Shown piece by piece: positions 27,763 through 53,900 of a DNA stretch of 64,000 nt. Source of the DNA: an uncultured Eubacteriales bacterium (GTDB lineage: Bacteria > Actinomycetota > Coriobacteriia > Anaerosomatales > JAAXUF01). The stretch spans positions 37,535-101,534 of the forward strand of contig CAYMAN010000002.1 of the NCBI GenBank assembly GCA_964388455.1. The letters are read 5' to 3'. Each line of letters begins with the position of its first letter. The first letter of the stretch is position 1. Position numbers and translations under genes: made by a program. The notes beneath the pieces were generated by a model, which made no database searches, was not told the origin of the DNA, and saw only the letters and a program-made list of their open reading frames with translations.

Positions 27763-27777
27763 GGTCGCGTCTCCTCT

Positions 27778-29175: not shown

Positions 29176-29395
29176 GCGGCTCCCCCTTTGGATGAATCAG
29201 CAGATAGCGGGCGTGCGTGAGTGTGCACGCGCTTGCGCACATACACGGAGTTCTTCCCCAAGAACCAGAAGATGGATACCTGAATCAGGAAGATGAGGCC
29301 TGCCACGTACGGTCGCCGAGGAGCCCGTTCTGCCTACTCCCGCGCGGCAGCGTACAATCACTCGATCACGCCGCTTGCCGAGAGGCCTCCACAGA

Positions 29396-33922: not shown

Positions 33923-34534
33923 CTACTTGGCAGCCCCGACCTTGGCTTCGCCGGTCTTGGCGTTGACGTCGATCGTGCTCGGCGTGGCGCCTTGCGGATC
34001 CAGCGCGACGCTCCACACAAACGGATCGATGGTCGTCGAGCTGGCGGCCGACTTAGGCACGTAGGTCACGAAGCCCATCGCCCACGGGGTCTTGTCGGTC
34101 GCCTTCTTGTCGGTCTTGAGGGCGGCGTCGAAGGCTTCATCGCTGTCGATCTTCCACTCGGCCGAGTCCGGGATGAGCTTCCACTCGGACTCGTCCATGC
34201 CTGCAGAGCCATACGGCTGGGTCGCGGTGACCTTTCCGTTCTCGACGGTGACGGCGACGATGCTGCCGTCCTTGGGAGAGCCGAACAGGTACTGCCACAC
34301 CGGAGTGGACGTGGCGGTGACCACGTTGGCGGTCTGGACCAGCAGCAGCTTCGCGTCAGGAGCGCTCGTGGACAGCGATGACTTCGCGACCCCGATGCTG
34401 TCCATCGCGGTGGGACCGCTCGGTTCCGCTTTCTCGGCGGTCTTGTTGCAGCCGACCAGCGCAACCGAGAGCGCGAGTGCAAGCGCGAGTACCAGCGCGC
34501 CACGGGTGACACGGGCGGTGGATAGGTGATTCAT
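33923..34534 (-). CDS. Hypothetical lipoprotein
   Basis: MNHLSTARVTRGALVLALALALSVALVGC lipobox. No recognised domain. Start set at the internal ATG (34534). Confidence 0.6.
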   Translation of the reverse strand: MNHLSTARVTRGALVLALALALSVALVGCNKTAEKAEPSGPTAMDSIGVAKSSLSTSAPDAKLLLVQTANVVTATSTPVWQYLFGSPKDGSIVAVTVENGKVTATQPYGSAGMDESEWKLIPDSAEWKIDSDEAFDAALKTDKKATDKTPWAMGFVTYVPKSAASSTTIDPFVWSVALDPQGATPSTIDVNAKTGEAKVGAAK

Positions 34535-34646
34535 GAGCAGACTCGCTTTCGTCGTTTCCTTGGCGTGCGCGCATCGCGCACCCACATATGGTACCCCCTC
34601 TGGCACTTCACGTGTGTGCGGTCTCTGTGTGGAGTCCGAGGCGTGC

Positions 34647-34709: not shown

Positions 34710-35813
34710 TTAGAAGCTCACGATCCCGGTCTTGAAGGCGTTGAGGCTCGCGGTGCTGGACTCGATTCTCCAGTCACGCTCCTTGTTCGCGTTGAACCAG
34801 GTGACGCCTACGATCCGCGGGTACGTGGTCGGGATGACCTTGAACATGTTCGAGATCCAGGCGGCCTTGTCTCCACCGACGGTTCCACAGCCTGTCTCGG
34901 CGATGAAGATTGGCTTCGTCGGGGAGAGAGCGGCGCAGGCCTTGTACGCCGGGCCCATCACGCTTGAGAAGCTGCGCCATGTGGAGGAGGTGGTCCCGAA
35001 GTTGTAGCCGTCGATACCGATGGAGTCGACGTAGCTCTCGCCGGGCCAGTACTTCCCGATGGCGTTGGCGGTCGTGTTGGGGACGCTGTCGGCGTTGGGG
35101 CTCCAGACGAACTTCACGTTGGTCGCACCGGCGTTCTTGAAGATGGTGCGCACGTGGCGCCAGGCCGCGATGAAGTCGGCGGGGGTGTTACCCGCAGCGG
35201 TTCCTGCCCAGGGGTACCAGTTGCCGTTCATCTCGTGGAACGGGCGCAGCCACACGGGCTTACCAAAGTTCTTGGCGTTGGTCGCGTACTTGATCAGGTA
35301 GGCGTCCATCGAACCGTTGGCGATCTGCTTGTAGCTGCCGCCGGTCATGACGGATGTGCTCACCGAGGCGTTCCAGAACTCGAGCGTGACCAGCGGGATG
35401 GCCCCGTGATCCGTGATCGCTGCGGACTGGACCTGGGTGAATCCCTGCGAGGTGTTCTGGAAGAAGTTGCGGACTGCGAACTTCTGGCCGACCTTACCCT
35501 CAAGTGTGGTGAGGTTGGTCAGGTTCTCGGCGGAACCCGTCACGTAGGCGCCGACCCAACGATCGGTGACCGAAGCGGTGACCGCGGTGACGGGGGCCGG
35601 ATCGGTGGTCGGCGCAGCGATCGTGGTACTGGGGACGATAGTAGGGGCAGGCTGTGTGCGGGACACCTTGGCGCGACGCTCGATGGCGGCGCGGCGAGAG
35701 GCGGCGGTGGTCTCGGCGGATGCGGTTGCAACCGGGACCAGCATCATCGGGGCTACGAGTGCGCTGACCAGCAGCGTCGAGACTCCCAGGGACATAAACG
35801 GCTTGAGCTTCAC
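34710..35813 (-). CDS. Secreted glycoside hydrolase family 26 protein (beta-mannanase-like fold)
   Basis: GH26-like blocks PVWLRPFHEMNGNWYPWAG, VKFVWSPN, YWPGESYVDSIGIDGYNFG. Signal peptide after a GTG at 35813; the start is uncertain (alternative ATG at 35795). Confidence 0.8.
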   Translation of the reverse strand: MKLKPFMSLGVSTLLVSALVAPMMLVPVATASAETTAASRRAAIERRAKVSRTQPAPTIVPSTTIAAPTTDPAPVTAVTASVTDRWVGAYVTGSAENLTNLTTLEGKVGQKFAVRNFFQNTSQGFTQVQSAAITDHGAIPLVTLEFWNASVSTSVMTGGSYKQIANGSMDAYLIKYATNAKNFGKPVWLRPFHEMNGNWYPWAGTAAGNTPADFIAAWRHVRTIFKNAGATNVKFVWSPNADSVPNTTANAIGKYWPGESYVDSIGIDGYNFGTTSSTWRSFSSVMGPAYKACAALSPTKPIFIAETGCGTVGGDKAAWISNMFKVIPTTYPRIVGVTWFNANKERDWRIESSTASLNAFKTGIVSF

Positions 35814-36103
35814 AATCCTCACCCTTCGGTAGCCTGGCTGTCTCAGCTTGTGAGACCCTTTGGCTTTGCGTCCCCGCCTCACGACGGGTTTGCCTTTGTC
35901 ACGGGAGGGCTCGGATCGCCCAACCCAAATGTTCATCTGTCACAGTTATCGGTCACAGCGTGCAGCACTTGAGTGATTTCCATCACATTTCTCGCACGGG
36001 CCGACGAACGGCTGACGAACGGTCGGTGTGTGGAATCGACGGTCACATGTGGAACAATCAGCCCTATACGAATTCGCCGAACGGACAGGACGCCGTACAC
36101 CGC

Positions 36104-37840
36104 ATGAGTCTCCGCACCCACGAAACCGCTCCCGGGACGCCCGATAGCGGACGCGTCAGGACAGCCGTTCTCGTGCTCACGTGGACCCTGATCGGGTTGG
36201 CGTTGCGTGTCGCGAGCATGAACACACGTGGTCTGTGGCTGGACGAGGCGATCACGGTCAAGCAGGCGAGCCGGGTGTTCCTGCGGGTCATCCAGAAGCT
36301 CGCGACCGGCGTGCACCCGCCGCTCTATCACATCACGATGCATTTCTGGCTCAAGTACTTTGGCAAGAGCGAGATCGCGCTTCGGTCGTTCTCGGTGATC
36401 ATCGGGGTGATCGCCATTCCCGTGGCCTATTGGGCCGGTAAGCGAATCTACGATCGCCGAACGGGCCTCATCGCAGCCGGGCTGATCGCGCTTTCACCGT
36501 TTCAGATCTGGTACTCGCAAGAGGCGCGTATGTACACGCTGCTCTTCCTGGGCGGACTGCTGTCGACCACGTTCCTGGTCCTCGCCGTCCGCGAGAACCG
36601 CAAGCACCTCTGGGTCGGCTACCTTGTCTTCACCACGATGGGGCTGTTCACCCACTACTTCTTCCTGTTCCTGATGGTGGGGCAGATTCTGTTCTACGTG
36701 TTTGGAATCGTGTGGATCACCGAGCGCGACGCGCGGCACGCGAAGACGGCGCAAGCGTCGTGGCGAAATCCCCGCGGGCTCTATACCGACGTGCCGACAC
36801 TGCGTCCCTGGCTGATCGTGTCGTTGTGTATGGCGCTGTTGGTGGGAACCTGGCTCGCCAACTCGATCTTCGTGCCCGCCGAGAACGGGCCCAATGCACT
36901 CGTCGGCTCGGTCGCCGGCTCGGGTCTGGGCTATGGGCAGGAGGCACCGCACCTGGCGCTGCGGTTCAACGACGTCGCGATCGTGGTCACCCAGATGACG
37001 GTCGGCTTCCACAGTCCCGCCGTTATGGGCGCGTTCGTCTCGCTGTGGCCCGGTCTGATCTACCTCGTGTTCGTGCTGATGGGACTTATCCGACCTGTGC
37101 GGATGTGGACCTGGGTTCTCCTGGTCACAGCCAGCGGCATCTTAACTATGTTTCTTCTCGGCCAATGGCAAGGTCAGATCCTGGCTTCTCGGTACTTCAT
37201 GGCGGTTGCGGCTCCGGCGTTCCTGCTCGCGGCACGACTGCTGGCGAAACTCAAGCGGCGGCATGCGCACCCATTAATGGTCGTGATGGTCGTTGTGGCG
37301 TTGGTGGCATGGGCCGATCAGTCGTACAACCCGAACAACGCCATGACCCACGACGACCGTGCCGCTTTTCAGACGATCGTCGCGAACTACAAGCCGGGCG
37401 ATACGGTGATTTACGCTCCGTTCTATCTCGACCCGCTCGCGGCCTACTACCTTCCCAGGTCGATTCCGCAGTACGGGATGCCTCGATACGGTCAGTACGA
37501 CGTGTTGCGCAACACGCAGGCACAGATCGACGAGGATACGGCTAGAATCGCCGGGTCGGCGAAACGCGTGTGGGTACTGCTTTCGTTCCAGGATATCGAT
37601 CCGGTTCGCAACGACTCCCAAGCGATCCGCTACTGGATGAAGCACAACGGCTACACCGTGGAGAAGCAGTCGTCGCTCAACCAGGTCGAGCTACTGCTCT
37701 ACGTGCCCCCCGAGGTCGTCGTCCCGCCGTCGTTCTTCACGCCGGAATCGTCTACGACTGCCACGACCTCCACAACCCCCACGACCTCCACGACGCCCAC
37801 ATCACCGATCGAGACCACCGGGACGGTGATCGCACCGTGA
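36104..37840 (+). CDS. GT-C fold glycosyltransferase, family 39 / PMT_2 (ArnT-like), with a Thr/Pro-rich C-terminal tail
   Basis: LWLDEAIT.., RSFSVIIGVIAIPVAYWAGKRIYD, SPFQIWYSQEARMYTLLF. Polytopic. Tail is TTATTSTTPTTSTTPTSP. Start uncertain (36047 or 36104). Confidence 0.75.
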   Translation: MSLRTHETAPGTPDSGRVRTAVLVLTWTLIGLALRVASMNTRGLWLDEAITVKQASRVFLRVIQKLATGVHPPLYHITMHFWLKYFGKSEIALRSFSVIIGVIAIPVAYWAGKRIYDRRTGLIAAGLIALSPFQIWYSQEARMYTLLFLGGLLSTTFLVLAVRENRKHLWVGYLVFTTMGLFTHYFFLFLMVGQILFYVFGIVWITERDARHAKTAQASWRNPRGLYTDVPTLRPWLIVSLCMALLVGTWLANSIFVPAENGPNALVGSVAGSGLGYGQEAPHLALRFNDVAIVVTQMTVGFHSPAVMGAFVSLWPGLIYLVFVLMGLIRPVRMWTWVLLVTASGILTMFLLGQWQGQILASRYFMAVAAPAFLLAARLLAKLKRRHAHPLMVVMVVVALVAWADQSYNPNNAMTHDDRAAFQTIVANYKPGDTVIYAPFYLDPLAAYYLPRSIPQYGMPRYGQYDVLRNTQAQIDEDTARIAGSAKRVWVLLSFQDIDPVRNDSQAIRYWMKHNGYTVEKQSSLNQVELLLYVPPEVVVPPSFFTPESSTTATTSTTPTTSTTPTSPIETTGTVIAP

Positions 37841-39336
37841 ACAGCAGCTACACAGTCGCGGAGCGTCGAGCCGCCTATCTGCGCAACTGCCGACTGCTCT
37901 CAGCGGCATGTGCGATCGCGGGCGCGTATTACCTGTGGTGGTTGATTGTCGACGCAAGAGCGGCGAACCCGTATCTGTATGCGATTCTGATCGGCGCGGA
38001 GCTGTTCAACCTCGTGCAGGCCGCAGGGTTCTGGCTCACTATCTCGAACCAGAAGTGGACCGTGCCGCCCGACGCCGACTTCTCGGCCTCGGGGGAGCGG
38101 ATCGACGCGTTCATCACGGTGTACGGCGAGCCCCACGACGTGGTCGAGAACACGATCCGTGCTGTCTCGGCGATACGTCATCCTCGGCTGAGCGTTTGGG
38201 TACTTGACGACGGCCCGGACCCGGGCATCGCCAGAATCGCCGAGCGCCACGGCGCCGCCTACGTCACCAGGCCCAACCGTATCGGCGCCAAGGCCGGCAA
38301 CGTCAACCACGCGCTCAAGCTCGCGGGCGGCGACTTCATCATCATCTTCGACGCCGACCATGCGCCGGTCCCCGAGTTCCTCGAGCGCACCATGGCCTGC
38401 TTCGCCGATCCGACCGTGGCGTTCGTGCAGACGCCGCAGTCGTACCGCAACCGCTTCGAGAACCGTGTGGCCGCCGGAGCCCACGAGCAGCAGGCGCTGT
38501 TCTACGGTCCCATCCTGCGCGGCAAGGACAGCGCGGGGGCCGTCTTCAGTTGCGGCACCAACGTCGTCTTCCGGCGCACCGCACTCGAGCAGATCGGCGG
38601 ACTCCCCGAGGACTCCATCACCGAGGACCTGCGCGTTTCGCTCATCCTCAAGAAGCTGCGCTGGACCTCGGTGTACGTCTCAGAGGTGTTGGCGACGGGG
38701 CTGGGGCCGGTCGATGTGCGCGGGTATTTCAGCCAGCAGATGCGTTGGGCGCGAGGCGGGCTTGAGATCCTGATGCGGCGACTGCCCTTCTTCGCAGGTA
38801 TCGGCCCAGCGCGTGGCTTGCAGTACGGACTCAGCTTTCTGTACTGGTTCACGGGCATCGCGTATGCGGGCTACATCGTGCTTCCGCTGGCGTTCCTGTT
38901 CTTCGGTCTGCGTCCGGTTCAGGTCCCAAACGAGTACCCCAGCCACTTCCTGCCTTACGTCTTCATCACGCTGCTCACGATGGTCTACGCGTCCGAGTTC
39001 ACGCTGACGTTTCGAGGAATCTGGTTCACGCTGGCGGCCTTCCCCGTACACACGGCCGCGCTGCTGCAGTCGATCTTTGGCCGTGCCGCGCGGTTCGTTG
39101 TGACCTCCAAGGTGGCGGGTAAGCGGAGTCTTCGACCGGTATGGGTGCACGTGCTTACGGTCACCGCGCTGAGCCTGGCGATTCCGTACGGCATCCTCAC
39201 CACGGGGGTCACCCCGTCGGTCGTGAACAACCTCGCGTTCGCTTTGGGGCATATTCTTATCGTGTCAGGGTTTTTGCGTTACGCGGTCCGGCCTGAGAAT
39301 CCGGATCACAACGAGCCTGCGAACACTACAGACTAG
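37837..39336 (+). CDS. Processive family-2 glycosyltransferase of the cellulose-synthase (BcsA/CslA-like) type, lacking a PilZ domain
   Basis: GTGA overlap with the GT39 stop. VWVLDDG, IIFDADH, TEDL, QQMRWARG (QxxRW), FVVTSK (FxVTxK). No RxxxR..DxSxxG PilZ motif in the C-terminus. Confidence 0.85.
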   Translation: MNSSYTVAERRAAYLRNCRLLSAACAIAGAYYLWWLIVDARAANPYLYAILIGAELFNLVQAAGFWLTISNQKWTVPPDADFSASGERIDAFITVYGEPHDVVENTIRAVSAIRHPRLSVWVLDDGPDPGIARIAERHGAAYVTRPNRIGAKAGNVNHALKLAGGDFIIIFDADHAPVPEFLERTMACFADPTVAFVQTPQSYRNRFENRVAAGAHEQQALFYGPILRGKDSAGAVFSCGTNVVFRRTALEQIGGLPEDSITEDLRVSLILKKLRWTSVYVSEVLATGLGPVDVRGYFSQQMRWARGGLEILMRRLPFFAGIGPARGLQYGLSFLYWFTGIAYAGYIVLPLAFLFFGLRPVQVPNEYPSHFLPYVFITLLTMVYASEFTLTFRGIWFTLAAFPVHTAALLQSIFGRAARFVVTSKVAGKRSLRPVWVHVLTVTALSLAIPYGILTTGVTPSVVNNLAFALGHILIVSGFLRYAVRPENPDHNEPANTTD

Positions 39337-39359
39337 TCTTCAGGGAAGTGAGGCCGGCG

Positions 39360-40592
39360 ATGAGGGCACCTGGAAACCGTCGCCCGTTCTTGAACTTCTT
39401 CGCCAAGGTCGTCGTGCTCGCTGCGGTGTTGTCCGCGGTGTCTGCGACCACCGGTTGTCGTGCGCTCATCGAGGCCGGCAAGGGTTCGTCGGCCGAGAAG
39501 CCCGGCAGCGTGAACGCGTCCGAAGTCCCCGACCCTGTCCTCCCGTCGCTGCCCGTCGCACCGCTTCCCCTTGCTGAGAAGGTCCGACCACCGGAGACGG
39601 GCGCATATCTCGGGATGTACTCGCCGCCGGCGCCGTTCACTCTGGGAAGAGTCGACTCGTTCGAGCAGCAAGCCGGCAAGGACGTGTCCATCGTGATGTG
39701 GTACCAACCATGGGCGACCAACAACCGCGCGCGCTTCGATGGCGCTGCATGTCTCGAGATCATGCGCCGAGGAAAAGTCCCGATGATCACGTGGGAGCCG
39801 TGGGATCCGGGTTCCGATGCGAACCTGGTCAAGGACGCTACTAAACAGTCGAAGTATCGGCTGAAGGCCATCACCTCCGGACGTTACGACGCCTATCTCC
39901 GACAGTGGGCGATTGACATACGCACACTCGGCGGGCCGGTAATGCTGCGGCCGATGCACGAGATGAACGGAAACTGGTACCCGTGGTGTGGCACGGTGAA
40001 CGGCAACACACCCGCGGAGTTCGTGAAGGCGTGGCGACATATCCACGACATCTTCGAGGAAGAGGGAGCGACCAACGTCACGTGGGTGTGGAGTATTAAT
40101 CATGTGAGCGTTCCGGACACTAAGGAGAACGCGTACGCCGCCTACTACCCGGGCGACGAATACGTGGACTGGACCTCCATCAGCGGCTTCAACTGGGGGA
40201 CGACCAGCAGGTACGCAAGCTGGCAACCGTTCATGCATTGGTACGAGCAACCGATCAAGTATCTGAAGCGGATCAAGAAGCCGATCATCATCTCGGAGTT
40301 CGGGTCGGTCGAGAAGGGCGGCAAGAAGAACGTCTGGATCACTGATGCGTATAAGCGGATCCGCGCGCTTCCGAAGGTACGGGGAGTCATCTACTATGAC
40401 TCCATCGAGCGCAGCAAGACCAGCACACAGGACTGGCGCATCAACTCGTCAAAGGCCAGCCTTGCGGCGTTCAGGGTCGCAATAGCACCCGACTACTTCT
40501 ATTCGACGGCGCCTGAAGCACTCTCCAACTGGGCAAGTTCATTGGACGAGGATGACTGGCGGTATCTCGTCTTACTTAAGCCGATCTACTGA
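39360..40592 (+). CDS. GH26-family glycoside hydrolase, probable lipoprotein (second paralog)
   Basis: SATTGC lipobox-like segment. PVMLRPMHEMNGNWYPWCG, VTWVWSIN, YYPGDEYVDWTSISGFNWG. Confidence 0.8.
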   Translation: MRAPGNRRPFLNFFAKVVVLAAVLSAVSATTGCRALIEAGKGSSAEKPGSVNASEVPDPVLPSLPVAPLPLAEKVRPPETGAYLGMYSPPAPFTLGRVDSFEQQAGKDVSIVMWYQPWATNNRARFDGAACLEIMRRGKVPMITWEPWDPGSDANLVKDATKQSKYRLKAITSGRYDAYLRQWAIDIRTLGGPVMLRPMHEMNGNWYPWCGTVNGNTPAEFVKAWRHIHDIFEEEGATNVTWVWSINHVSVPDTKENAYAAYYPGDEYVDWTSISGFNWGTTSRYASWQPFMHWYEQPIKYLKRIKKPIIISEFGSVEKGGKKNVWITDAYKRIRALPKVRGVIYYDSIERSKTSTQDWRINSSKASLAAFRVAIAPDYFYSTAPEALSNWASSLDEDDWRYLVLLKPIY

Positions 40593-40614
40593 TGAACGCG
40601 CGGAGGCGGTAGGT

Positions 40615-41742
40615 ATGCCGATCAGAACGACCCGTGAGCTCGTGGCCGCGCTGGGCCTGGGAGCACCTCAGGATCCCATCGATGTCACCATCGTGCTGCC
40701 GGCATATAACGAGGTCGATAACGTCCCGGGTAGTTACGAAGAGATCGTGGCCGTGATGCGGACGACCGACCTCGACTACGAGTTCATCTTCGTCGACGAC
40801 GGTTCCTGCGACGGCACGTGGGAGGCCATCAACGAGCTCGCCCTGAGCGACACGCGAGTTCGAGGGCTGCGCCACCGCCAGAACTCCGGCAAGGCGAGCG
40901 CGCTGGCCAACGGCATCACCTACGCTCGCGGCCGGATCGTCGCGATTGTGGATGCGGACCTGCAGTACCACGCGATCGATGTCCTGCGCGTGATCGAGCA
41001 GGCGGGTGTCGGTTACGAGGCCGTCACCGCGTCCAAGGTGCTGCGCAAGGACCGGCTCACGAAGCGCTTACCGTCGAAGTTCTTCAACGCGTTTGTGCGC
41101 CGCATGACCGGCGTGAAGCTGCACGACATGAACGCCGGCCTGAAGGCATTCAGCTACGAGGCGGCCAATGAGCTTGTGCGCTACGGCTACGGCGAGCTTC
41201 ACCGATTCTTCATGGTGATCCTCGCGGTGAAGGGCTACTCGGTCCACGAGGTCGAGGTCGAGAGCCGTCCGCGTGTCTCCGGCACCACCAAGTACGGCAC
41301 GGAACGCTATTTGCGCGGGGCGATGGACTTCCTCACCATCTTCTTCCTGTCGGGATACCTCGAGCGCCCGCTACACCTCTTCGGTGGCATAGGCGTCGCC
41401 CTGATGGCGACGGGCACGTTCTTCGCGACCTACACCATCGCGGGCAACCTGTTCGGATTCTCGTATCCCGGCGGAGGCACGTTCTTCTCGTTCGGCGCGC
41501 TGATGATCCTCACCGGCATCCAGCTCTTCGGAGTCGGATTCGTCGCCGAGATGATCGGGAATCTCGAGGGTGCCGTGCGATCCAAGGGCAAGGTCTCCGA
41601 GGTCATCGGCATCGAGCGACGCTCGAATCGCTCCAGCACCGCAGGCGTGGTAGTGGACCGCCGCGAGCAGTCTGCCGCGCATCAGATCGTCATCGAGCGA
41701 GAGGCTGCGGCCAAGGACGCCGACGAGGCCTTGCAGCGTTAG
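40615..41742 (+). CDS. GtrB/DPM1-like GT2: polyprenyl-phosphate sugar synthase with C-terminal TM helices
   Basis: GGAGG RBS. VLPAYNE, FVDDGSCDGT, VDADLQ. Two or more C-terminal TM helices. Confidence 0.85.
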   Translation: MPIRTTRELVAALGLGAPQDPIDVTIVLPAYNEVDNVPGSYEEIVAVMRTTDLDYEFIFVDDGSCDGTWEAINELALSDTRVRGLRHRQNSGKASALANGITYARGRIVAIVDADLQYHAIDVLRVIEQAGVGYEAVTASKVLRKDRLTKRLPSKFFNAFVRRMTGVKLHDMNAGLKAFSYEAANELVRYGYGELHRFFMVILAVKGYSVHEVEVESRPRVSGTTKYGTERYLRGAMDFLTIFFLSGYLERPLHLFGGIGVALMATGTFFATYTIAGNLFGFSYPGGGTFFSFGALMILTGIQLFGVGFVAEMIGNLEGAVRSKGKVSEVIGIERRSNRSSTAGVVVDRREQSAAHQIVIEREAAAKDADEALQR

Positions 41743-41753
41743 CCGCGCCAGCC

Positions 41754-42638
41754 CTATCGCCTCGCACTGGTGACGTATTCCCACGCGAACCCGGCCTGCT
41801 GCAGCGCGATGCTCGCTCCCAGCAGCGGAACGATCGCGACGATCTTGGGGTCACTGCGATGCAGCCAGAGAATCGTCTTGTAGCTGGCAAGTCGGCGCCC
41901 GATGGTGCCGCCTGCCGGTACCCTTCGCGAGAACTGGCATGCCGCGCGTCCTCGGCGGAAGAACCAGCGACCGAACTCCGGGAGACTGCTGCGCGCGTCG
42001 TGCTCGACCAGCGCGGTGGGCTGGAACTTCACACGCAGCCCCGCCGAGGAGATTCGGTGCGAAAGCTCACCGTCTTCGCCGCCAAATATCAACGACTCGT
42101 CGAACGGCCCCACGCGGGTGAAGGTCTCGTCGCGCAGGGCACAGTTGAGTGTGGAGATGTGCGTGGTGAAGCCTTGGTCGTCGACCGGGAACATCACTGC
42201 GAACCCGGTACTTCCGCCAGCGGGAAACCCGAGAGCTGAGATCGAGTCACCCAGGAAGGTCGACGGCCGAATACGAACGTTGCCCATGACGGCGTGGACC
42301 GTCGGGTCGTCGAGGGGGGCGAGAAGCTGCGGCAACCAGTCGTCCGCCGGCCAGCAGTCGTCATCTACGAATACAACGGTATCGCCCTGGGCGGCTTCGA
42401 GTGCGCGGTTGCGGTTGTAGCCCAGACCGCGCGTCGCGGGAATGCTCAGCAACGAGACATCTTCGCTCAGGTGCTCGCGCGCGGCCACGTCTGCGACTTG
42501 CGGGTTCTCGGCGACGATGATGACTTCGCCGGAGAGGGAGTCGGAGCGCTCGGCGGCGAGCAGTTCCGCGAGTCGGCTGGCGAGTGCGCCAACCTCGGGG
42601 GTCATGCCCCGCGTGACGATTAGCAGGCTTACCTTCAC
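41754..42638 (-). CDS. Family-2 glycosyltransferase (GT-A)
   Basis: The GTG overlaps the flippase stop (GTGA). SLLIVTRG, VVFVDDDCWP. Confidence 0.75.
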   Translation of the reverse strand: MKVSLLIVTRGMTPEVGALASRLAELLAAERSDSLSGEVIIVAENPQVADVAAREHLSEDVSLLSIPATRGLGYNRNRALEAAQGDTVVFVDDDCWPADDWLPQLLAPLDDPTVHAVMGNVRIRPSTFLGDSISALGFPAGGSTGFAVMFPVDDQGFTTHISTLNCALRDETFTRVGPFDESLIFGGEDGELSHRISSAGLRVKFQPTALVEHDARSSLPEFGRWFFRRGRAACQFSRRVPAGGTIGRRLASYKTILWLHRSDPKIVAIVPLLGASIALQQAGFAWEYVTSARR

Positions 42639-44095
42639 GTGAGACCGCCCTTGATCGCTTCGATGTCTTTGCGCGTGATGGCGCGTGTCAGGAAGAGCAT
42701 GCCCGCAAACGCGAGTGCGAACACGGCGTACCACGCGATCAGCCATGCATTTGCTGCGGGATCGATCAGCCATGCCGCGAGACCCACGACAACGGCCGGT
42801 ACCAGCAGCCGCAGGAAGGTAGAGCCCAGCTGTAAGTTCATGTGACGGCGCATCGCCGCGAACGCGAGCACGGTACCCACCACGTAGGAGGCCGCGACGG
42901 CGATCGCGGTGCCGTTGTAACCGACTTGCGAGGTGAGAATCAGTGCGGCGACGATTTCGGCTCCCAGAATCGACAGCACACCGATCAGCACCGCGCGCCC
43001 ATGCCCCTCGATGAGCAGCAGTGGCGCCATCGCCACGCCGAGCATGCCGATTCCGGTACCCACGCCCAAGATGGCGAGGACGGCCGCGCCCGGGGCGTAG
43101 TCTGCCGAGAAGACGAAGGTGAGCAGAGCGCCGGCCGTCGGTACGATCACCGCGATCCATAGTCCACCGGCTGCGACCAGTAGCCGTGTCACTTGGCTGA
43201 CGTAGTGACGCATACGGTCGGTGTCACCACGACGATGGGCATCGCTGTAGGCCGCATACATGCCCCATACGATGCCGGAGGACAGGGTTATCGGCACGTG
43301 TGCGAAGAGGCCGGCCGCGCGGTAGAAGCCTGCGTCGGCGGCTGGCAGCATCGCCTTCACGATCCAGAGGTCCGCCGAGACAGCGAGTGATTGGGACAGG
43401 ATCAGCGCCGCGGGGACCACGGAGCCACGGATGGCGTCGCGGGCGGTATGAGTGGTGCGTACCGCGCTGTCTCCCACGAGCCTGCGGCCGCGAAACCTCC
43501 ATACGATGATCGCGTACGCGATGGTTGCCCCCACAACGGAAGCAGAGATGCTGCCTAGGATGGCACCCATCACGGCGAGACCGGAACCCACGAGCAGCAT
43601 CGTCGCCATCAGCTTCGCGAGCGAGTAGGTGATGTAGGTGGTGGCTTGGAGTACGTACTCTCGGCCGCCCATGATGACGCCCTGGAACAGCGCGAGCAGT
43701 GCGAACAACGGGAGGTCCAGGGCGGCGACCCGATACAGCATCGTGTCCTCGGGCGTGCCGAAGAGACGGGCGAGTAGCGGTGTGATCAGGATCAGTATGA
43801 CCGCCAGTGAGACGGACAGACCGAGCTGTGCATACAGGTACGAGCGGGGGATGAGCGCACCGTCTGCATCGGAGTCCACCACGCGCATGACCCACAGGGG
43901 GAGTGCCTCGGCAACGAAGAGCTCGAACCACGCGAGCACCGTGATGATGACAGCCAGCAGTCCGAAGAGATCGGGGCCAAGCTGACGGGCCAGGAACACG
44001 TTGAGCGCGTAAGAGAGGCCCACGGTGACGACGCGGCTTGCGGTGAGAACGACGCTGCCACGCGTCAGGGATGTGCTGTTCTTGGCTGCGGCCAC
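42635..44095 (-). CDS. Polysaccharide biosynthesis protein / Wzx-like (MOP superfamily) flippase
   Basis: GTG start. About 12-14 TM helices. N-terminus SLTRGSVVLTASRVVTVGLSYALNVFLARQLGP is typical of the family. Confidence 0.75.
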   Translation of the reverse strand: MAAAKNSTSLTRGSVVLTASRVVTVGLSYALNVFLARQLGPDLFGLLAVIITVLAWFELFVAEALPLWVMRVVDSDADGALIPRSYLYAQLGLSVSLAVILILITPLLARLFGTPEDTMLYRVAALDLPLFALLALFQGVIMGGREYVLQATTYITYSLAKLMATMLLVGSGLAVMGAILGSISASVVGATIAYAIIVWRFRGRRLVGDSAVRTTHTARDAIRGSVVPAALILSQSLAVSADLWIVKAMLPAADAGFYRAAGLFAHVPITLSSGIVWGMYAAYSDAHRRGDTDRMRHYVSQVTRLLVAAGGLWIAVIVPTAGALLTFVFSADYAPGAAVLAILGVGTGIGMLGVAMAPLLLIEGHGRAVLIGVLSILGAEIVAALILTSQVGYNGTAIAVAASYVVGTVLAFAAMRRHMNLQLGSTFLRLLVPAVVVGLAAWLIDPAANAWLIAWYAVFALAFAGMLFLTRAITRKDIEAIKGGLT

Positions 44096-44193
44096 GCGGG
44101 TAGCCCTTCGGCAGTACGGACGTCAGGTCGTGAGCTCCACTCTAGCCCAGCATCGGCCGCATCGCACCCTTCGGGGAGGGGTACAGTCAGTTC

Positions 44194-45372
44194 ATGCATA
44201 CGCAGTTGATCTCTGATGAGTCGGAGTTCGTGGCCCTGCAGCCTGAGTGGGATGGCGTGCTATCGGCGTCCAATCAGGACGCGCCGTTCCTGCGACACGA
44301 CTGGCTTTTGCAGTGGTGGCGTGCCTTCGGATGCGGGGAGCTTGCGATCGTCACCTGCAGAGACGACGACACCGGCGCGCTTCTTGGCGTGCTGCCGGCC
44401 TACCGAAGCCGCGTGGGGGTCGTATGGCCTGTACGCACGCTGAGGCTGCTCGGAGATGGCCGATCTGGCAGTTCCGCACTCGGTGCCTTCGCGATCCGAA
44501 CTGCCGAGGAACCTGTACTCGAGCGGTTGGTGGCAGCGGCACTCGACGATTTCGGCATGTGGGAGGCGCTCGAGCTGCGCTACGTGCGGCTCGAGGAACC
44601 GTTCGCGCTAATGGTGCTCGCCCACATCGAGTCTCACGTTCCGCGAGCCACTGTGAGTCTCTCGGCGGATCTGTTCGCCCGCCCGTGTATCGATCTGCAT
44701 GGAAGCTGGGACGAGTATCTCGCGCGGTCACTGAGTCCCGAGAGACGCCGCCGCATCAGAAACACCCTGCGTCGGGCAGAACGTGCGGGTGCGACAACTG
44801 AGCGAATCACCACCGAGGAAGCACTCGAGACCTCACTTGACGATGCCATCAAGATTCATGAGCTGCGGATGCGAGAAGTCGTGAGCCCGCAGTTCGTGGT
44901 GACGGTCGCCCAACGGCAGTTCTGGCACGCGACCTGCCGCTCGCTTCTAGCGGAGGACCGACTGAGATTGAGCTTTCTGGTCGTGGAAGGCCAGCGTGTC
45001 GGATGTTCCTGCCAGATGCGTTACGGCGATACGCGATACGCGATGTGGGGCGGATTTCTCGGAGGCTGGGCGCGCATCCAGCCGCCCAAAGTGCTGTTCT
45101 GTTCGCATGTGCAGGATGCCATCGCCGAGGGATGCGTGATGCTCGACTACGGTTTGGGGGAAGTCGCGTACAAGTCGAGTTGGGGCGCGGTCCGAGCCGA
45201 GCGGTTCGGGACGCTGCGCGCGTATCGGGCGACACTGCATGGGCAGCTCGCGCGGGCGCGAGGGGCGACCGTGATCGCCGCTCAGCAGGCGATCGATGCG
45301 GCGCCCGAGCGTCTGCGGCGACCACTGTGGAACCTCGCGCAGGTAGCACGCGGCTTGTTGCGCTCGAGGTAG
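44194..45372 (+). CDS. CelD/BcsL-like GNAT-fold protein (Acetyltransf_6-type)
   Basis: EWDGVL..APFLRHDWLLQWWRAFG N-terminus, plus C-terminal ..YAMWGGF..MLDYGLGEVAYKSSWG. Confidence 0.7.
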   Translation: MHTQLISDESEFVALQPEWDGVLSASNQDAPFLRHDWLLQWWRAFGCGELAIVTCRDDDTGALLGVLPAYRSRVGVVWPVRTLRLLGDGRSGSSALGAFAIRTAEEPVLERLVAAALDDFGMWEALELRYVRLEEPFALMVLAHIESHVPRATVSLSADLFARPCIDLHGSWDEYLARSLSPERRRRIRNTLRRAERAGATTERITTEEALETSLDDAIKIHELRMREVVSPQFVVTVAQRQFWHATCRSLLAEDRLRLSFLVVEGQRVGCSCQMRYGDTRYAMWGGFLGGWARIQPPKVLFCSHVQDAIAEGCVMLDYGLGEVAYKSSWGAVRAERFGTLRAYRATLHGQLARARGATVIAAQQAIDAAPERLRRPLWNLAQVARGLLRSR

Positions 45373-45384
45373 CGACTGCGGCGT

Positions 45385-46539
45385 TTACTGCTTGGAAGCC
45401 TCAGGAGATTGGGCTTGCAGCGCTGTCGTGTAGCGGGCCCACGTCGCATCGACGAAGGCTGCTTCGCTGTGGCGTGCCGTGATGTCCGCGCGCCCGGCGT
45501 CGGCGAGTCGGCGTGCACGAGCCGGGTCGTCCAGGAGATCCAGCATCGCCTCCGCGAGCGCAGCGGAATCGCCCGGCGCCACCAGCAGGCCGGTCACGTC
45601 GTCTGTGACGACGTCGCTCGAGCCGCCCACCGCCGTCGCGATGACGGGGATGCCCAGCGCCATGGCCTGCGCGGTCACCGTGCCAAGGCCCTCCGTCAGA
45701 GAGGGCGACACGTGCAGGTCGAGTGCGGCGAGCATCGGCGCCGGCTCGTCCAGGTAGCCGAGCAGGTGCACTCGGTCAGACACGCCGAGCTGCTCGGCGA
45801 GCGCGGTGAGCGCGTCGCGCTGAGAGCCCTCTCCGGCGACGACCAGTGCTGCATCAGCGTGCAAGCTGGTGATCTCGGTGAAAGCGCGGATGAGCGTGTC
45901 GACGCCCTTGAGCCGTTCGAGCTGGCCTACCGCGGACCCTATGAGCGGCCTTCCCGGTGGAAGCGTGATCGGTGCGCGTGCGCGCTGGGAGAGATCCTCG
46001 GCGTTCACGGCCGCACCGCCGACGGTGACCACGCCGCGCACCCCGAGCCGTTGCAGGCTCTCGCGCACCGGTTCAGAAACCGCGAGCACGCCGTCGAGAG
46101 ACGGGCTGATACGAGTCAGGAGGAAGTTGCGGAACGCCGTGACGGCTGGTCGCGAACGACCGTCGGCAAACACCGATGTCGAGGCCGGGTCCACCACGAC
46201 ACTCACGAAGCGGGCCGTCGGACCGCCCGCTGGGCGCCCGAGCAGCAAGCCGGGCTCGGCGAGGACCAGTGGCACGGCGCTCATCGCGTGCAGAATATCC
46301 GGGTGCGTCTCGGCGAGCAGCGTGCGAAGCTCGCGTCGACCCCGCACGCTCGCCGAGAAGCCCGTGGAAGCGAACTCCACGCCGCGGGAGGCAGCCGCCT
46401 GTTCGAGCGCCGAGCCGCCAGGCCCGACGATGACCGCAGTGTCGCCGCGCCGCGCCGCGCTGGCGGCCAGCGTCAACGCGCGCAGTGCCGCACCGGTGAG
46501 GTGCTGGCGAGGGGCGTTGACCAGGTACGCGATGCGCAT
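45385..46539 (-). CDS. Family-4 (GT-B, group 1) glycosyltransferase
   Basis: GGAG RBS, start MRIAYLV. C-terminal HVSPSLTEGLGTVTAQAMALGIPVIATAVGGSSDVV (E-x7-E region). Confidence 0.85.
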   Translation of the reverse strand: MRIAYLVNAPRQHLTGAALRALTLAASAARRGDTAVIVGPGGSALEQAAASRGVEFASTGFSASVRGRRELRTLLAETHPDILHAMSAVPLVLAEPGLLLGRPAGGPTARFVSVVVDPASTSVFADGRSRPAVTAFRNFLLTRISPSLDGVLAVSEPVRESLQRLGVRGVVTVGGAAVNAEDLSQRARAPITLPPGRPLIGSAVGQLERLKGVDTLIRAFTEITSLHADAALVVAGEGSQRDALTALAEQLGVSDRVHLLGYLDEPAPMLAALDLHVSPSLTEGLGTVTAQAMALGIPVIATAVGGSSDVVTDDVTGLLVAPGDSAALAEAMLDLLDDPARARRLADAGRADITARHSEAAFVDATWARYTTALQAQSPEASKQ

Positions 46540-46695
46540 CAGGCGGCTCCTTCGCTGGTCCGTCGGCGCGGATGTGGCTGCGTGTGCGTTCTTTTCGTAG
46601 GATAGGATGGTGTTGGTATGACGACAGCGTAGCGTACCTGCGGTTGTTGGAGTGCAGCGGGTGGAGTCGGTGCAGTAAAGGAGGGGAGAGTCGAC

Positions 46696-47529
46696 ATGGA
46701 CCAGCGAGCCATGAGTGAGCCCAGACTGCTGCTCTACCACGACCTCACCCTCCGTGGCTCGATCACGGCCGAGCTGGCCACTGAGCGATTCGAGACACAA
46801 CTCTCCCTCATCACGCAGATGGGCTTTCGCTTCGCGACGATGGGTGAATACCTCGCGGGAGAGTTGGGTCCGCGTGACGTGGTCGTCACCTTCGACGACG
46901 GACTGCGTAGCTTCCATCAGGTCGCCTGGCCGGTCATGCGCCGCCGCTTTATCAAGCCTACCCTCTTCGTGGTCTCGGAGTTCGCCGAGCGAACCGACGC
47001 GCACGAGAAGCTCATGACCTGGGATGACGTTCACGAGGTTGCCGCGGCCGGCGCCACTATCGGTTGCCACGCCGCAAGCCACGTGCCGCTCGACCAGATT
47101 CCACCGGAGCAGATGCGCCGCGAGATCACGCGCTCACTTGCCGCATTCGCCGAGCAGGGCTTGCCGACCACGACGCTCGCCTACCCGTTTGGTCGCTACA
47201 ACGAAGTGGTGAAGGTTGCGACCCGGGAAGCCGGATTCGAGGCGGCGTTCACTGTCATGAAAGGCGGCGCCGACCGCTTCGAGATCCGCCGCCGACTCCT
47301 CACCGGTGCCGAGAACCCCGCGACTCTGCTCCTGACGCTCTCCGACGGCTTCTTCGCGCTGCGAGAGGCCGCGCGCGGCGTGATCCCGCGACGCTATCTC
47401 AAGCAGGAGCAGCCCGTCGCGCAGTCCCGCTGGGGCGCGCAGGCGTTCGGCTTGCCCGAGGAACCAGCGACGGACAGGTTCGCGGAATCGGCTCGGTTGA
47501 ACGATCCGCTCGGCGAAACCGACGAGTGA
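46696..47529 (+). CDS. Polysaccharide deacetylase (CE4 / NodB homology domain)
   Basis: AGGAGGGGAG RBS. VVTFDDGLRS, GCHAASHVPL, LAYPFGRYN. Confidence 0.85.
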   Translation: MDQRAMSEPRLLLYHDLTLRGSITAELATERFETQLSLITQMGFRFATMGEYLAGELGPRDVVVTFDDGLRSFHQVAWPVMRRRFIKPTLFVVSEFAERTDAHEKLMTWDDVHEVAAAGATIGCHAASHVPLDQIPPEQMRREITRSLAAFAEQGLPTTTLAYPFGRYNEVVKVATREAGFEAAFTVMKGGADRFEIRRRLLTGAENPATLLLTLSDGFFALREAARGVIPRRYLKQEQPVAQSRWGAQAFGLPEEPATDRFAESARLNDPLGETDE

Positions 47530-47537
47530 ACCCGCCG

Positions 47538-49379
47538 TTACGGAGCGGCTGTGTCGACTTTGATCAGTACTGTCGCGCCGAGCGGGGCTTCCACGTCCTT
47601 CTTGGGACTCTGCTCGAACACCAGCCCCGTGTTGCTGTGCAACTCTGGGACTACGTTCACCTCAAAGCCGGCCGCCACGAGCTTCGCCCTCGCCTCGGCC
47701 TCGGTCAAACCAATGACGTCCGGCACCAATGCGGTTGCCGGCCCCGAGGACACAGTGATCGTCACGGTAGAGTCCTTGGGAATGGATCCGCCGTTGGGGT
47801 TTTGGCTGATGACGATGCCCTTCTTCGCGGTGTCGCTGTTCTCGGTCTTCACCGACACCTTGAAGCCGGCCTTCTTGAGAGCCGCCGTCGCCTGCGACTG
47901 GGTCTTTCCAGCGACCGACGGCACCATCACGAGCTCTGCACCGCGTGATACCACGTAGTTCACCACGGTGCCCTTCTTGAGCCTCTCACCGGCGGCAGGA
48001 TCCTGCTCGAACACCTTGCCAGCCTCGACATCCTTGTTGAACTTCTGATCGAGCGGCTGCGGGCTGAATCCGGCCTCTGTGAGCAGCTTGAACGCGTCTG
48101 TCTGGGCCATTCCTATCACGCTGGGAACAATCGCGACGTCCGCACCCTTGCTGACCTCGAGGTCGATGGGCGCACCCTTCTTGGCCTCGTCGCCGGCGTT
48201 CGGTGTCTGCTTGGTTACGAGCCCCGTGTCCACGTTGTCCGAGAACACCGGGGTGACGTTGCCGAGGACGAATCCGGCGTTGTTGAGCACCTTTGTCGCC
48301 TCGGCGACCGTACGTCCGCTGACGTCGGGAATCGGTGTCGTGCGAGCGCCGAGAAGGTCCATATTCCACGCCAGCCCGAGACCGGCGAGCACGAGCAATA
48401 CGCCCAACAGAATCCAAGGCCAGATCGGTCTCTTGGTGGGAAGCTGTCGACGGTCGCCCTGGCCATACGGCGTGGTGGGCCCACCGACGGCGGGCATCAC
48501 CGCGGTCTCATCCATAGCTGCGGCGCCTGAGGCCATCGCGCCTGCAGCAGCCGCGTTCACCGGCTGACCCTGTGCGACACGCAGCAGGTCCCGGCGCATC
48601 TCGTCTGCCGAAGGGTAGCGATCCGTGGGGCGCTTGGAGAGCGCCTTCATGATGACGGCCTCAAGGGCCGGATCGATGTTCGGGTTCACTTCCGAGGCGC
48701 GGCGCGGCATCTCGTTGACCTGCTTGAGCGCCACCGCGACGGGGGTGTCGGCGTCAAACGGCAGCTCACCGGTCGCCGACTCGTAGAGCACGACACCCAG
48801 CGAGTAGAGGTCACTCGTGGCGGTCAGCGGCTTGCCCTGCGCCTGCTCGGGCGAGACGTAGTGAGCCGTGCCGAGAACCGAACCCGTCTGCGTCATGGTC
48901 GAGTTCCCGGCGCGCGCGATACCGAAGTCCATGACCTTCACCGAGCCGTCCGGCTGCACCATGATGTTGTGCGGCTTGATGTCCCGGTGGATGATGTCGT
49001 ACCCGTGCGCGACACTCAGCGCCGAGCAGACCTGAGCGCCTACATCTGCGACCTTGCGACCCGGGATGGCGCCCTTCTGCTGGATGATCGACTTGAGGTC
49101 GGTGCCGCGTACGTACTCCATGACGATGTAATACGTCTCGCCGTCCTGGCCCCAGTCGTACATGTTCACGATGTTGGGTGAGACGAGATTGGCAGCGGCC
49201 TGTGCCTCCTGGCGGAAGCGCGCTGCGAACGCGGGGTCGGAAGCGTAGCGAGCATGCATCACCTTGACGGCGACGGTTCTGCCCAACGTCTCGTCGACGG
49301 CCTTGTACACATCCGCCATGCCACCGGTGCCGATCTTCTCGGTAGCGCGGTATCTACGTCCGAATACCAACTCTTCCAC
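47538..49379 (-). CDS. pknB: Ser/Thr protein kinase PknB with one TM and four extracellular PASTA repeats
   Basis: GTGGMADVYKA, VAVK, HRDIKPHN, DFG. Four PASTA-like units (..VPDVSGRTVAEATKVLNNAGF.. etc). Confidence 0.9.
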   Translation of the reverse strand: MEELVFGRRYRATEKIGTGGMADVYKAVDETLGRTVAVKVMHARYASDPAFAARFRQEAQAAANLVSPNIVNMYDWGQDGETYYIVMEYVRGTDLKSIIQQKGAIPGRKVADVGAQVCSALSVAHGYDIIHRDIKPHNIMVQPDGSVKVMDFGIARAGNSTMTQTGSVLGTAHYVSPEQAQGKPLTATSDLYSLGVVLYESATGELPFDADTPVAVALKQVNEMPRRASEVNPNIDPALEAVIMKALSKRPTDRYPSADEMRRDLLRVAQGQPVNAAAAGAMASGAAAMDETAVMPAVGGPTTPYGQGDRRQLPTKRPIWPWILLGVLLVLAGLGLAWNMDLLGARTTPIPDVSGRTVAEATKVLNNAGFVLGNVTPVFSDNVDTGLVTKQTPNAGDEAKKGAPIDLEVSKGADVAIVPSVIGMAQTDAFKLLTEAGFSPQPLDQKFNKDVEAGKVFEQDPAAGERLKKGTVVNYVVSRGAELVMVPSVAGKTQSQATAALKKAGFKVSVKTENSDTAKKGIVISQNPNGGSIPKDSTVTITVSSGPATALVPDVIGLTEAEARAKLVAAGFEVNVVPELHSNTGLVFEQSPKKDVEAPLGATVLIKVDTAAP

Positions 49380-53487: not shown

Positions 53488-53900
53488 GAACGATCCACCT
53501 TGAGCTTCACGGCGCCGATGTCGACGGTGTCACCAGGACGCAGTGTCATCGCGTTGGTCACGCGCTGGCCGTTGAGCAGCGTGCCGTTGGTCGAGCCGAG
53601 GTCTTCGAGCACAGCGCCGTCGCCGCTGGGCGAGAAGCGCGCGTGCTTGCCGGAGACGAAGTCGTCGCCGATCACGATGTCGGCGCCCGGAGACCTTCCG
53701 ATGACGACAGGGCCGTTGATCGGCACCGTCACGCCCTGGAGTTCACGCGGCCCTTTGGTTACCGAGACGGTCCAGGCTCCGCGGCCCCGTACGCGTTGGC
53801 CGGCGACCAGGCCGATACCGGTCTTCACCGCGGCGAACAGAAACAGGTACAGCAGTGCCAGGAGGAGAAGACGCCCGGCGAGCAGCACGACGTCGATCAT
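53484..53900 (-). CDS. fhaB: FhaB-like small FHA-domain protein with an N-terminal TM helix
   Basis: TM then FHA core GRSPGADIVIGDDFVSGKHARF..LGSTNGTLLNG. ATGA overlap with pstP. Confidence 0.85.
   Translation of the reverse strand: MIDVVLLAGRLLLLALLYLFLFAAVKTGIGLVAGQRVRGRGAWTVSVTKGPRELQGVTVPINGPVVIGRSPGADIVIGDDFVSGKHARFSPSGDGAVLEDLGSTNGTLLNGQRVTNAMTLRPGDTVDIGAVKLKVDRS

Follow-up and report, generated by a model that had tools for sequence, protein, structure and literature searches.

Bacterial polysaccharides are usually sorted by route into Wzx/Wzy, ABC transporter and synthase systems, and, to our knowledge, the modification of synthase products is regarded as limited to small changes, e.g., acetyl groups, phosphoethanolamine or deacetylation. 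In actinobacteria, the CslA-GlxA-CslZ system of Streptomyces comprises a PilZ-less cellulose-synthase-like enzyme and a cognate glucanase of glycoside hydrolase (GH) family 6; comparing by description only, we know of no GT-C glycosyltransferase or GtrB in it. BgsA of Sinorhizobium meliloti is BcsA-like, lacks PilZ and makes a non-cellulose, mixed-linkage β-glucan (PMC10374906). Among lipid-linked systems there is a precedent in which undecaprenyl-phosphate N-acetylglucosamine from GacI or WpsA can be lengthened, carried across the membrane by a Wzx-type flippase and attached to another polysaccharide by a GT-C enzyme (PMC10821137). Here, we analyzed 64,000 nt of an uncultured Coriobacteriia bacterium (assembly GCA_964388455.1, contig CAYMAN010000002.1, forward strand, 37,535–101,534), hereafter called the window, to which all positions refer. 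At 34710–47529 it carries a cluster in which a PilZ-less BcsA-like synthase of glycosyltransferase family 2 (GT2) is coupled to a GT-C enzyme and stands together with GH26 enzymes, a GtrB-like enzyme and a Wzx-type flippase. With a probability of roughly one half, we read this cluster as a two-track machine that makes a side-chain-decorated β-glucan at the surface of a monoderm actinobacterium.

The stop codon of the GT-C gene overlaps the start codon of the synthase gene in the sequence GTGA (37837–37840), and a second GTGA overlap joins a small GT2 gene to the flippase gene (42638–42635); both had been named in an earlier note on this DNA and can be read directly in the sequence. In every locus with upstream sequence, from Coriobacteriia, Acidimicrobiia and Solirubrobacteraceae and at synthase identities of 38–90%, the GT-C gene lies immediately 5′ of the synthase gene. 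Distant relatives at 38–43% synthase identity (Acidimicrobiia, Solirubrobacteraceae, and metagenome-assembled genomes (MAGs) of other Actinomycetota) keep the stop-start overlap and usually have a GtrB-like gene nearby, but no GH26. Moreover, several relatives outside the Coriobacteriia, at ~40% identity, encode the synthase and a PMT_2 GT-C enzyme as one polypeptide (proteins P0372, P0374, P0378 and P0380), and in P0378 the GT-C half is homologous to the GT-C protein of the window over 505 amino acids (aa; E 2e-29). The earlier note had proposed that a synthase-type GT2 and a GtrB/GT-C module form a hybrid, an idea that is strongly supported by the 4-bp overlaps conserved over three Actinomycetota classes and by the natural fusions.

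It could be argued that two independent pathways merely share one locus, the synthase and GH26 making a plain cellulose-like exopolysaccharide and the GtrB, Wzx and GT-C proteins glycosylating proteins or another wall polymer. Two facts would suit such a separation: protein O-mannosylation in actinobacteria is performed by PMT_2 enzymes that work with a partner of GtrB/Ppm1 type, and the accessory genes differ in order from locus to locus. However, unrelated functions are hard to reconcile with an overlap that is kept across classes and with the existence of synthase::GT-C and GtrB::synthase proteins as single polypeptides, and we regard this explanation as quite unlikely.

In over 20 metagenomic loci, independent of one another, the whole gene set is kept with protein identities of 45–90%, indicating that the cluster genes are real and not chance open reading frames (ORFs). 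Metagenomes are the source of the nearest homologs of the synthase, which reach 91% identity, and those with a name belong to MAGs of uncultured Coriobacteriia or ‘Actinobacteria’. At E ≤ 1e-30, the synthase family comprises 1,822 cluster representatives, not all of them GT-C-linked, and is well represented in metagenomes from soil, groundwater and sediment. No cultured host of the GT-C-linked family was found among the matches, and a scan of GTDB genomes gave MAGs only; the matches in cultured Granulicella and Saccharothrix were set aside as distant GT2 enzymes without a detectable GT-C gene beside them.

The synthase has the D,D,D,QxxRW signature (DDG124, DAD172, TED262 and QQMRW300) and the FxVTxK gating loop (FVVTSK420), as well as the BcsA-type motifs AKAGN and QTPQ, which suggest the use of UDP-glucose. 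Its best solved relatives in a PDB search were the BcsA proteins of E. coli and Rhodobacter (E ~1e-48, residues 19–447), with one BcsA alignment at E 8e-49 covering residues 28–425. In the alignment, its N-terminus corresponds to transmembrane (TM) helix 3 of BcsA; two TM helices only precede the glycosyltransferase domain. Since only ~74 residues with two TM helices remain after FVVTSK, the enzyme lacks PilZ, as the earlier note had claimed, and no PilZ match was obtained with Pfam. All of its close homologs (about 120) are ~500 aa long. A synthase of 642 aa, ~130 aa longer than its relatives, is encoded in an Actinomycetota MAG (L018:9986-11914). The NCBIfam models for cellulose synthase score far below their cutoffs (CelA TIGR03030, 235.6 versus 699.1 bits; PRK11498, 180.9 versus 992). 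In a small neighbor-joining tree with PgaC as outgroup, which included Klebsiella BcsA, S. meliloti BgsA and a BgsA-like Agrobacterium protein whose gene neighbors an HlyD-like one, the actinobacterial synthases linked to GT-C form a group of their own outside the BcsA and BgsA group (98% bootstrap), under very thin sampling without CslA, CrdS, RiGT2 or plant CesA/Csl. The earlier note had listed nesting of the GT2 inside bona fide cellulose synthases, together with a cellulose product, as evidence against its idea; all that this tree would mean is that, among the sampled sequences, the synthase family is not nested in BcsA or BgsA.

Searching the PDB with the GT-C sequence returned nothing even at E ≤ 1, so the fold was established through an AlphaFold2 (AF2) model built with 29 homologs (predicted local distance difference test (pLDDT) 85, predicted TM-score (pTM) 0.84) and Foldseek. 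The model has a GT-C fold, with STT3, PglB and AglB found at E ~1e-7 and the best TM-score for ArnT (5f15, 0.53/0.56). The WLDEA motif in the first external loop, with D47 and E48, is nearly invariant (at least 90% of the 29 homologs), and H71, P72, E140, R142 and Y144 are invariant in these homologs, which span 29–90% identity. Because of the GT-C fold and the nearly invariant D47/E48, the protein looks catalytically competent, and the conservation pattern speaks for an active enzyme and against a scaffold.

The opposite view is that the GT-C protein is a non-catalytic scaffold which replaces BcsB and guides or stabilizes an unmodified cellulose chain, with GtrB and the other proteins serving something else. 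Pfam scans of the cluster and the rest of the window revealed nothing like BcsB, the synthase begins at the equivalent of BcsA TM helix 3, and the AF2 model contains a folded extracytoplasmic C-terminal domain, all as a scaffold might require. Nevertheless, near-invariance of D47/E48 and the other signature residues over such a range of identities argues against a merely structural role, as do the GtrB-like and flippase genes or domains that travel with the GT-C/synthase pair. A scaffold is therefore very improbable. Behind its folded C-terminal domain, the GT-C protein ends in a Thr/Pro-rich tail of low complexity (about 37720–37837; TTATTSTTPTTSTTPTSPIETTG), and residues 539–578 are disordered in the model (pLDDT <50); this tail may form an O-glycosylated linker.

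All parts of a lipid-linked glycosylation module are present in the cluster, i.e., the GtrB-like enzyme, the Wzx-type flippase and the GT-C enzyme with its conserved acidic residues. The GtrB-like protein consists of a GT-A domain and two hydrophobic C-terminal TM helices and matches PgfS (1.6e-36, 2–291 of 308) and ArnC (9.9e-34, 7–305 of 316) in NCBIfam, below the equivalog cutoff in both cases. Among the cluster and window ORFs, Pfam detected no initiating phosphoglycosyl transferase, Wzy or chain-length regulator, although a divergent Wzy can escape Pfam. A domain of Wzx/MOP fold is fused to the GT-C enzyme in other Actinomycetota, where long GT-C homologs of 860–990 aa carry an extra N-terminal domain. 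These ~450 aa have no Pfam match at E ≤ 5 and no BLASTP match to the Wzx protein of the window, but hhalign relates them to Wzx with 88.9% probability. Foldseek with AF2 models matched the N-terminal half to the lipid III flippase WzxE (TM-score 0.70–0.71) and also to MurJ, and the C-terminal half to PglB, STT3 and ArnT.

Further fusions and gene orders join the same functions. A DPM1/GtrB-type GT2 is fused to the synthase in P0364 and P0368, and the N-terminus of P0364 is homologous to the GtrB-like protein of the window (E 2e-21). The minimal operon of locus L023 reads GtrB / MprF-type flippase-like protein (PF03706) / GT-C / synthase / GH8, its last four genes joined by 4-bp overlaps. One relative contig has the order flippase-like / synthase::GT-C / GH26 (weak match) / GT4 / PIG-L deacetylase, and another the order kinase / GtrB::synthase / GT-C / GH8. 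In addition, P0366 is a Ser/Thr kinase::synthase protein, a kinase gene (L039:6567-7883) lies directly 5′ of a synthase gene, and P0375 combines two MshEN domains, which are c-di-GMP receptors, with synthase and GT-C. Kinase and MshEN domains may thus be alternative regulators that replace PilZ.

The GtrB::synthase proteins also bear on a second model, in which GtrB makes polyprenyl-phosphate-glucose, the synthase elongates and threads it, and the GT-C enzyme ligates the whole glucan to a cell-wall acceptor (peptidoglycan, glycopolymer or protein), the other glycosyltransferases, Wzx, CE4 and GNAT proteins building the acceptor or a linker. Apart from the fusions themselves, this model gains from the en bloc glycan transfer proposed for the GT-C enzyme WpsJ (PMC10821137). 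The cluster also adjoins a PknB/RodA-penicillin-binding protein (PBP) cell-wall locus in the window and its closest relatives, an adjacency that is not conserved in L001. This model would, however, require a polyprenyl-linked reducing end to cross the membrane along with the chain. Against such priming, BcsA as characterised works without a lipid primer and exports its chain with the reducing end in front. A Wzx flippase fused to the GT-C enzyme is better explained by a donor that is flipped separately. Lipid priming of the glucan therefore seems fairly unlikely; it comes second in our ranking, after side-chain decoration and before unrelated pathways, a GT-C scaffold and, last, a mannan product.

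Both GH26 paralogs speak to the backbone. Against the PDB, the best match of GH26-a was CtLic26A, a β-1,3-1,4-glucanase of Clostridium thermocellum (2bvd, E 5.9e-56), and that of GH26-b the same enzyme (2bv9, E 1.3e-52), each with 43% identity from end to end, whereas mannanase and β-1,3-xylanase structures reached only about 1e-9 to 1e-11 (for the two paralogs, 4e-11 and 6e-11 at best with any other GH26 structure). The Pfam scores of both proteins are well above the GH26 cutoff of 20.2 bits. The catalytic glutamate pair, listed in the earlier note as a check on these proteins, is intact in both paralogs: Glu188 (HEMNG) and Glu300 (IAETG) of GH26-a, and Glu205 and Glu317 of GH26-b, align with E109 and E222 of CtLic26A, the acid/base and the nucleophile. 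GH26-a has a signal peptide followed by an Ala/Thr/Pro-rich linker. GH26-b had been called a lipoprotein; its signal peptide and a ...TTGC sequence are present, but the lipobox is marginal and we treat lipoprotein status as putative. By sequence, the two paralogs belong to the Lic26A β-glucanase clade and are predicted glucanases.

The earlier note had also asked whether GH26 genes are conserved with the synthase. A GH26-b-type gene is found within 3 kb 3′ of the synthase gene in all 21 Coriobacteriia-type loci with downstream sequence (directly adjacent in 19), and these loci contain one to four GH26 copies. Four are present in L001/L013, from one Coriobacteriia MAG, where three tandem GH26-a-type genes lie 5′ of the GT-C gene (L001/L013:3698-8043, minus strand). 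All three match GH26-a at 57% identity, yet a precomputed Pfam match exists for just one of them, indicating that the Pfam GH26 model is weak for Lic26A-type proteins. Distant synthase relatives have other hydrolases: GH8, the BcsZ family, is encoded adjacent to the synthase in L023, L038 and L039, about 21 of the 120 best homologs of the L023 synthase are C-terminal synthase::GH8 fusions (e.g., L036), and a convergent GH6 gene with a CBM60 domain lies near the synthase relative of L027. Because Lic26A-type GH26, GH8 and GH6 are all β-glucanase families, the backbone is probably a β-1,4-containing glucan, presumably gluco-configured and possibly substituted or mixed-linkage, as judged from these partners.

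A β-mannan or glucomannan with GH26 mannanases, as favored in the earlier note, is the least probable of the products considered, indeed highly improbable. Most characterised GH26 enzymes are mannanases, and this is what speaks for it; CtLic26A was the sole GH26 lichenase reported before GH26A of Clostridium saccharoperbutylacetonicum, a lichenase with strong xyloglucanase activity that is inactive on mannan (PMC7157769). The inactivity of this other characterised Lic26A-clade member, the wide gap in E-values between CtLic26A and the mannanases, the use of GH8 and possibly GH6 by synthase relatives, and the BcsA-type AKAGN and QTPQ motifs of the synthase with their presumed link to UDP-glucose all argue against mannan. 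The remainder of that proposal, a mixed-linkage or non-crystalline glucan that is glycosylated and N-deacetylated or acylated, is still the best reading.

The genes that could build and tailor side chains are conserved to different degrees. GtrB, small GT2, Wzx, GT4 and carbohydrate esterase family 4 (CE4) genes are usually present in Coriobacteriia-type loci. The small GT2 has weak best NCBIfam matches of MftF, EpsD and AglG type and is kept in Coriobacteriia loci; the GT4, also conserved in relatives, has weak matches that include the N-acetylglucosamine (GlcNAc)-transferring BshA/MshA; and the CE4 protein weakly matches PgaB, HfsH and NodB. The gene for an acyltransferase of the GNAT superfamily is variable, being absent in the close relative L003 and present in two copies in L001. 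In a distant locus, a GT4 and PIG-L deacetylase pair occupies the place equivalent to GT4/CE4, and this recurring combination of GT4 with a deacetylase hints at a step from GlcNAc to glucosamine. ArnD provides a precedent for a cytoplasmic CE4 enzyme acting on a lipid-linked sugar. In L024 and L038, GT2/GT4 and polysaccharide pyruvyl transferase genes are found 5′ of a gene for a GT-C enzyme of 887–915 aa, which suggests pyruvylated side chains in these versions in place of CE4/GNAT tailoring. The pyruvyl transferase genes (L038:6238-7344 and L024:6007-7134) lie directly 5′ of Wzx::GT-C in these Solirubrobacteraceae and Acidimicrobiia versions. Such differences in tailoring genes between lineages (CE4/GNAT, PIG-L or pyruvyl transferase) are as expected for decoration.

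The gene identities, folds, catalytic motifs, conserved coupling and fusions observed here would be accommodated by the following two-track model. On one track, the PilZ-less BcsA-like GT2 would polymerize and translocate a β-1,4-containing glucan, cellulose-like or mixed-linkage in its presumed backbone linkage, presumably from UDP-glucose. On the other, the GtrB-like enzyme would attach a sugar, the putative donor, to polyprenyl monophosphate on the cytoplasmic side of the membrane; in Coriobacteriia, it would probably be extended by the small GT2 and GT4, the cytoplasmic CE4 protein probably N-deacetylates an N-acetylhexosamine, and the GNAT protein may re-acylate it, the order of these cytoplasmic steps being our proposal. 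The Wzx-type flippase would then move the lipid-linked glycan outward, and the GT-C enzyme, whose translation is coupled to that of the synthase and which probably docks on the synthase, would transfer the glycan onto the emerging glucan. We infer the nascent glucan as the acceptor because of the translational coupling and the fusions. Finally, the two extracytoplasmic Lic26A-type GH26 enzymes would take the role of BcsZ and trim or release the polymer.

Several points weigh against side-chain decoration of a β-glucan. Co-localization and fusion show that the components act jointly but do not reveal which of them is joined to which product, and GtrB::synthase fusions fit a lipid primer equally well. 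No GtrB gene lies within 10 kb in L006, L036 and L037. The sugar and linkage specificity of a GT2 synthase cannot be read from its sequence, the GH families are no more than indirect evidence for the backbone, and the GH6 enzyme of L027 may be coincidental, an unrelated biomass enzyme. The tree was sampled very thinly, without CslA, CrdS, RiGT2 and plant CesA/Csl, and every step of the model rests on sequence, gene context and predicted fold.

In a broader and more tentative form, which we hold at somewhat less than even odds, the cluster would represent an unrecognized route in Actinomycetota: a synthase extrudes β-glucan while a docked or fused GT-C enzyme co-synthetically grafts lipid-phosphate-linked sugars or tailored oligosaccharides onto it, giving a xyloglucan- or xanthan-like polymer without Wzy, with the kinase::synthase and MshEN::synthase::GT-C fusions suggesting control by means other than PilZ. 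If true, such a synthase, hard-wired to a GT-C enzyme with lipid-linked glycans as donors, would combine routes that are otherwise kept apart, could explain soluble, branched β-glucans of monoderm actinobacteria, and would extend the role of GH26 beyond the degradation of plant biomass. The natural single-chain synthase::GT-C proteins would be good targets for structural work.

The genes of the cluster are listed in Table 1. All gene families named in the earlier note were found where it had placed them, with Pfam and NCBIfam assignments in agreement; however, the interval 34710–47529 contains 10 genes and not 11; the conserved lipoprotein gene falls just outside. The genes show a strong third-position GC bias in a window of 65% G+C. 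NCBIfam gave an equivalog-level assignment for none of the 10 cluster proteins, and a Pfam scan of the ORFs found no further polysaccharide genes elsewhere in the window. A plus-strand ORF at 45409–46605 was discarded as spurious, the GT4 gene being located on the minus strand.

Table 1. Genes of the cluster and its border (positions in the window).
Gene product	Position	Strand	Remarks
Lipoprotein, lipobox LVGC	33923..34537	-	No Pfam family; possible accessory part
GH26-a, secreted, predicted Lic26A-type β-glucanase	34710..35795	-	Pfam GH26 55.9 bits; divergent from GT-C operon
PMT_2/ArnT-like GT-C	about 36104..37840	+	Pfam PMT_2 2e-13; stop overlaps synthase start
PilZ-less BcsA-like processive GT2 synthase, 499 aa	37837..39336	+	Motifs, BcsA structure match
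GH26-b, putative lipoprotein, Lic26A-type	39348..40592	+	Pfam GH26 49.9 bits; directly 3′ of synthase
GtrB/ArnC/PgfS-like polyprenyl-phosphate GT2	40552..41742	+	Pfam Glycos_transf_2 6.7e-27; true start possibly 40615
Small cytoplasmic GT2	41754..42638	-	Pfam GT2 families; GTGA-coupled to Wzx gene
Wzx-type MOP flippase	42635..44095	-	Pfam Polysacc_synt 1.7e-18, Polysacc_synt_3 5.5e-13
Acetyltransf_6 (FemAB/CelD-like) GNAT acyltransferase	44194..45372	+	Pfam PF13480 1.1e-20
GT4 glycosyltransferase	45385..46539	-	Pfam Glycos_transf_1 1.4e-38
CE4 deacetylase, no signal peptide (cytoplasmic)	46696..47529	+	Pfam Polysacc_deac_1 4.1e-21; TFDDG, HAASH motifs

The lipoprotein, for which Pfam detected no family, is kept beside GH26-a only in the closest relatives L003–L005 (61–84% identity). 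The cluster is flanked by an FGGY kinase gene on one side and by PknB-PASTA kinase, RodA-PBP and PP2C genes on the other. The PknB-type Ser/Thr kinase has four PASTA domains (47538–49379, minus strand) and its gene ends 8 bp from the CE4 gene; it was considered as a regulator, but as this adjacency is not conserved in L001, we only note this neighbor alongside the kinase::synthase fusion. Next to it, FtsW/RodA (SEDS) and class-B PBP domains (dimerisation and transpeptidase) share a single reading frame (49523 to about 52285, minus strand). The homolog in L003/L004 was called as one protein of 920 aa, so that this looks like a natural RodA-PBP fusion, which is followed by a PP2C phosphatase gene (52291–53529). 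Elsewhere in the window, a 634-aa protein (25873–27777, minus strand) combines a FixO-like cbb3 oxidase subunit with five Cytochrome_CBB3 c-type domains; its gene adjoins that of a COX1 subunit (27778–29196) and a FixP_N-containing ORF (25347–25706).

Each component family of the cluster is known, and the combination is widespread in uncultured Actinomycetota without a characterised member. The earlier note was aware of no characterised bacterial system of this kind, and we likewise found no literature report of the combination, nothing on coupling or fusion between a BcsA-like synthase and a GT-C enzyme, and nothing on a synthase system whose cognate hydrolase is GH26. Romboutsia ilealis RiGT2, a BcsA-like enzyme for mixed-linkage β-glucan, was rejected as a close analog, since it has a PilZ domain that is needed for activity; neither GT-C nor GH26 is among its partners. 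The GT2 NfrB has an MshEN domain, yet no GT-C. In the case of Streptomyces CslA-GlxA-CslZ, the GH6 family recurs near the synthase relative of L027, whereas the GlxA copper oxidase, by description, has no counterpart in the window cluster. BgsA pairs with the HlyD-like BgsB, as seen in L033, groups with BcsA and has no GT-C or GH26 partner; conversely, Pfam found no HlyD-like BgsB partner in the window cluster.

The resemblance to the Bcs system (BcsA-BcsB-BcsZ) lies in a membrane-bound, processive GT2 that carries the D,D,D,QxxRW and FxVTxK motifs and in the gene beside it for a cognate extracytoplasmic endo-glucanase, which is GH8 in relatives. In contrast to Bcs, the cluster has neither PilZ nor BcsB, its hydrolase is GH26 instead of GH8, the pairing with GT-C is obligatory, and the synthases form a separate clade. 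Across the entire catalytic domain, the GH26 pair is 43% identical to CtLic26A, the GH26 module of CelH, with which it has the catalytic Glu residues in common, and is also comparable to C. saccharoperbutylacetonicum GH26A; unlike these cellulosomal enzymes of plant-biomass degradation, it is encoded inside a biosynthetic operon. On the lipid-linked side, the GtrB/GtrA/GtrC, GacI-J-K-L and ArnC-D-E/F-T systems and the ‘dual-chain’ pathway of the lactococcal polysaccharide pellicle (PSP; WpsA/B, WpsC-F, the Wzx-type WpsG and the GT-C enzyme WpsJ) likewise combine a GtrB-type synthase, optional cytoplasmic elongation or tailoring, a Wzx-type flippase and transfer by a GT-C enzyme to a pre-made polymer (PMC10821137). 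Their acceptors, however, are rhamnan, O-antigen, teichoic acids or lipid A, delivered via an ABC transporter or Wzy, whereas in the window cluster the partner is a synthase-type GT2 that is coupled, and in relatives fused, to the GT-C enzyme.

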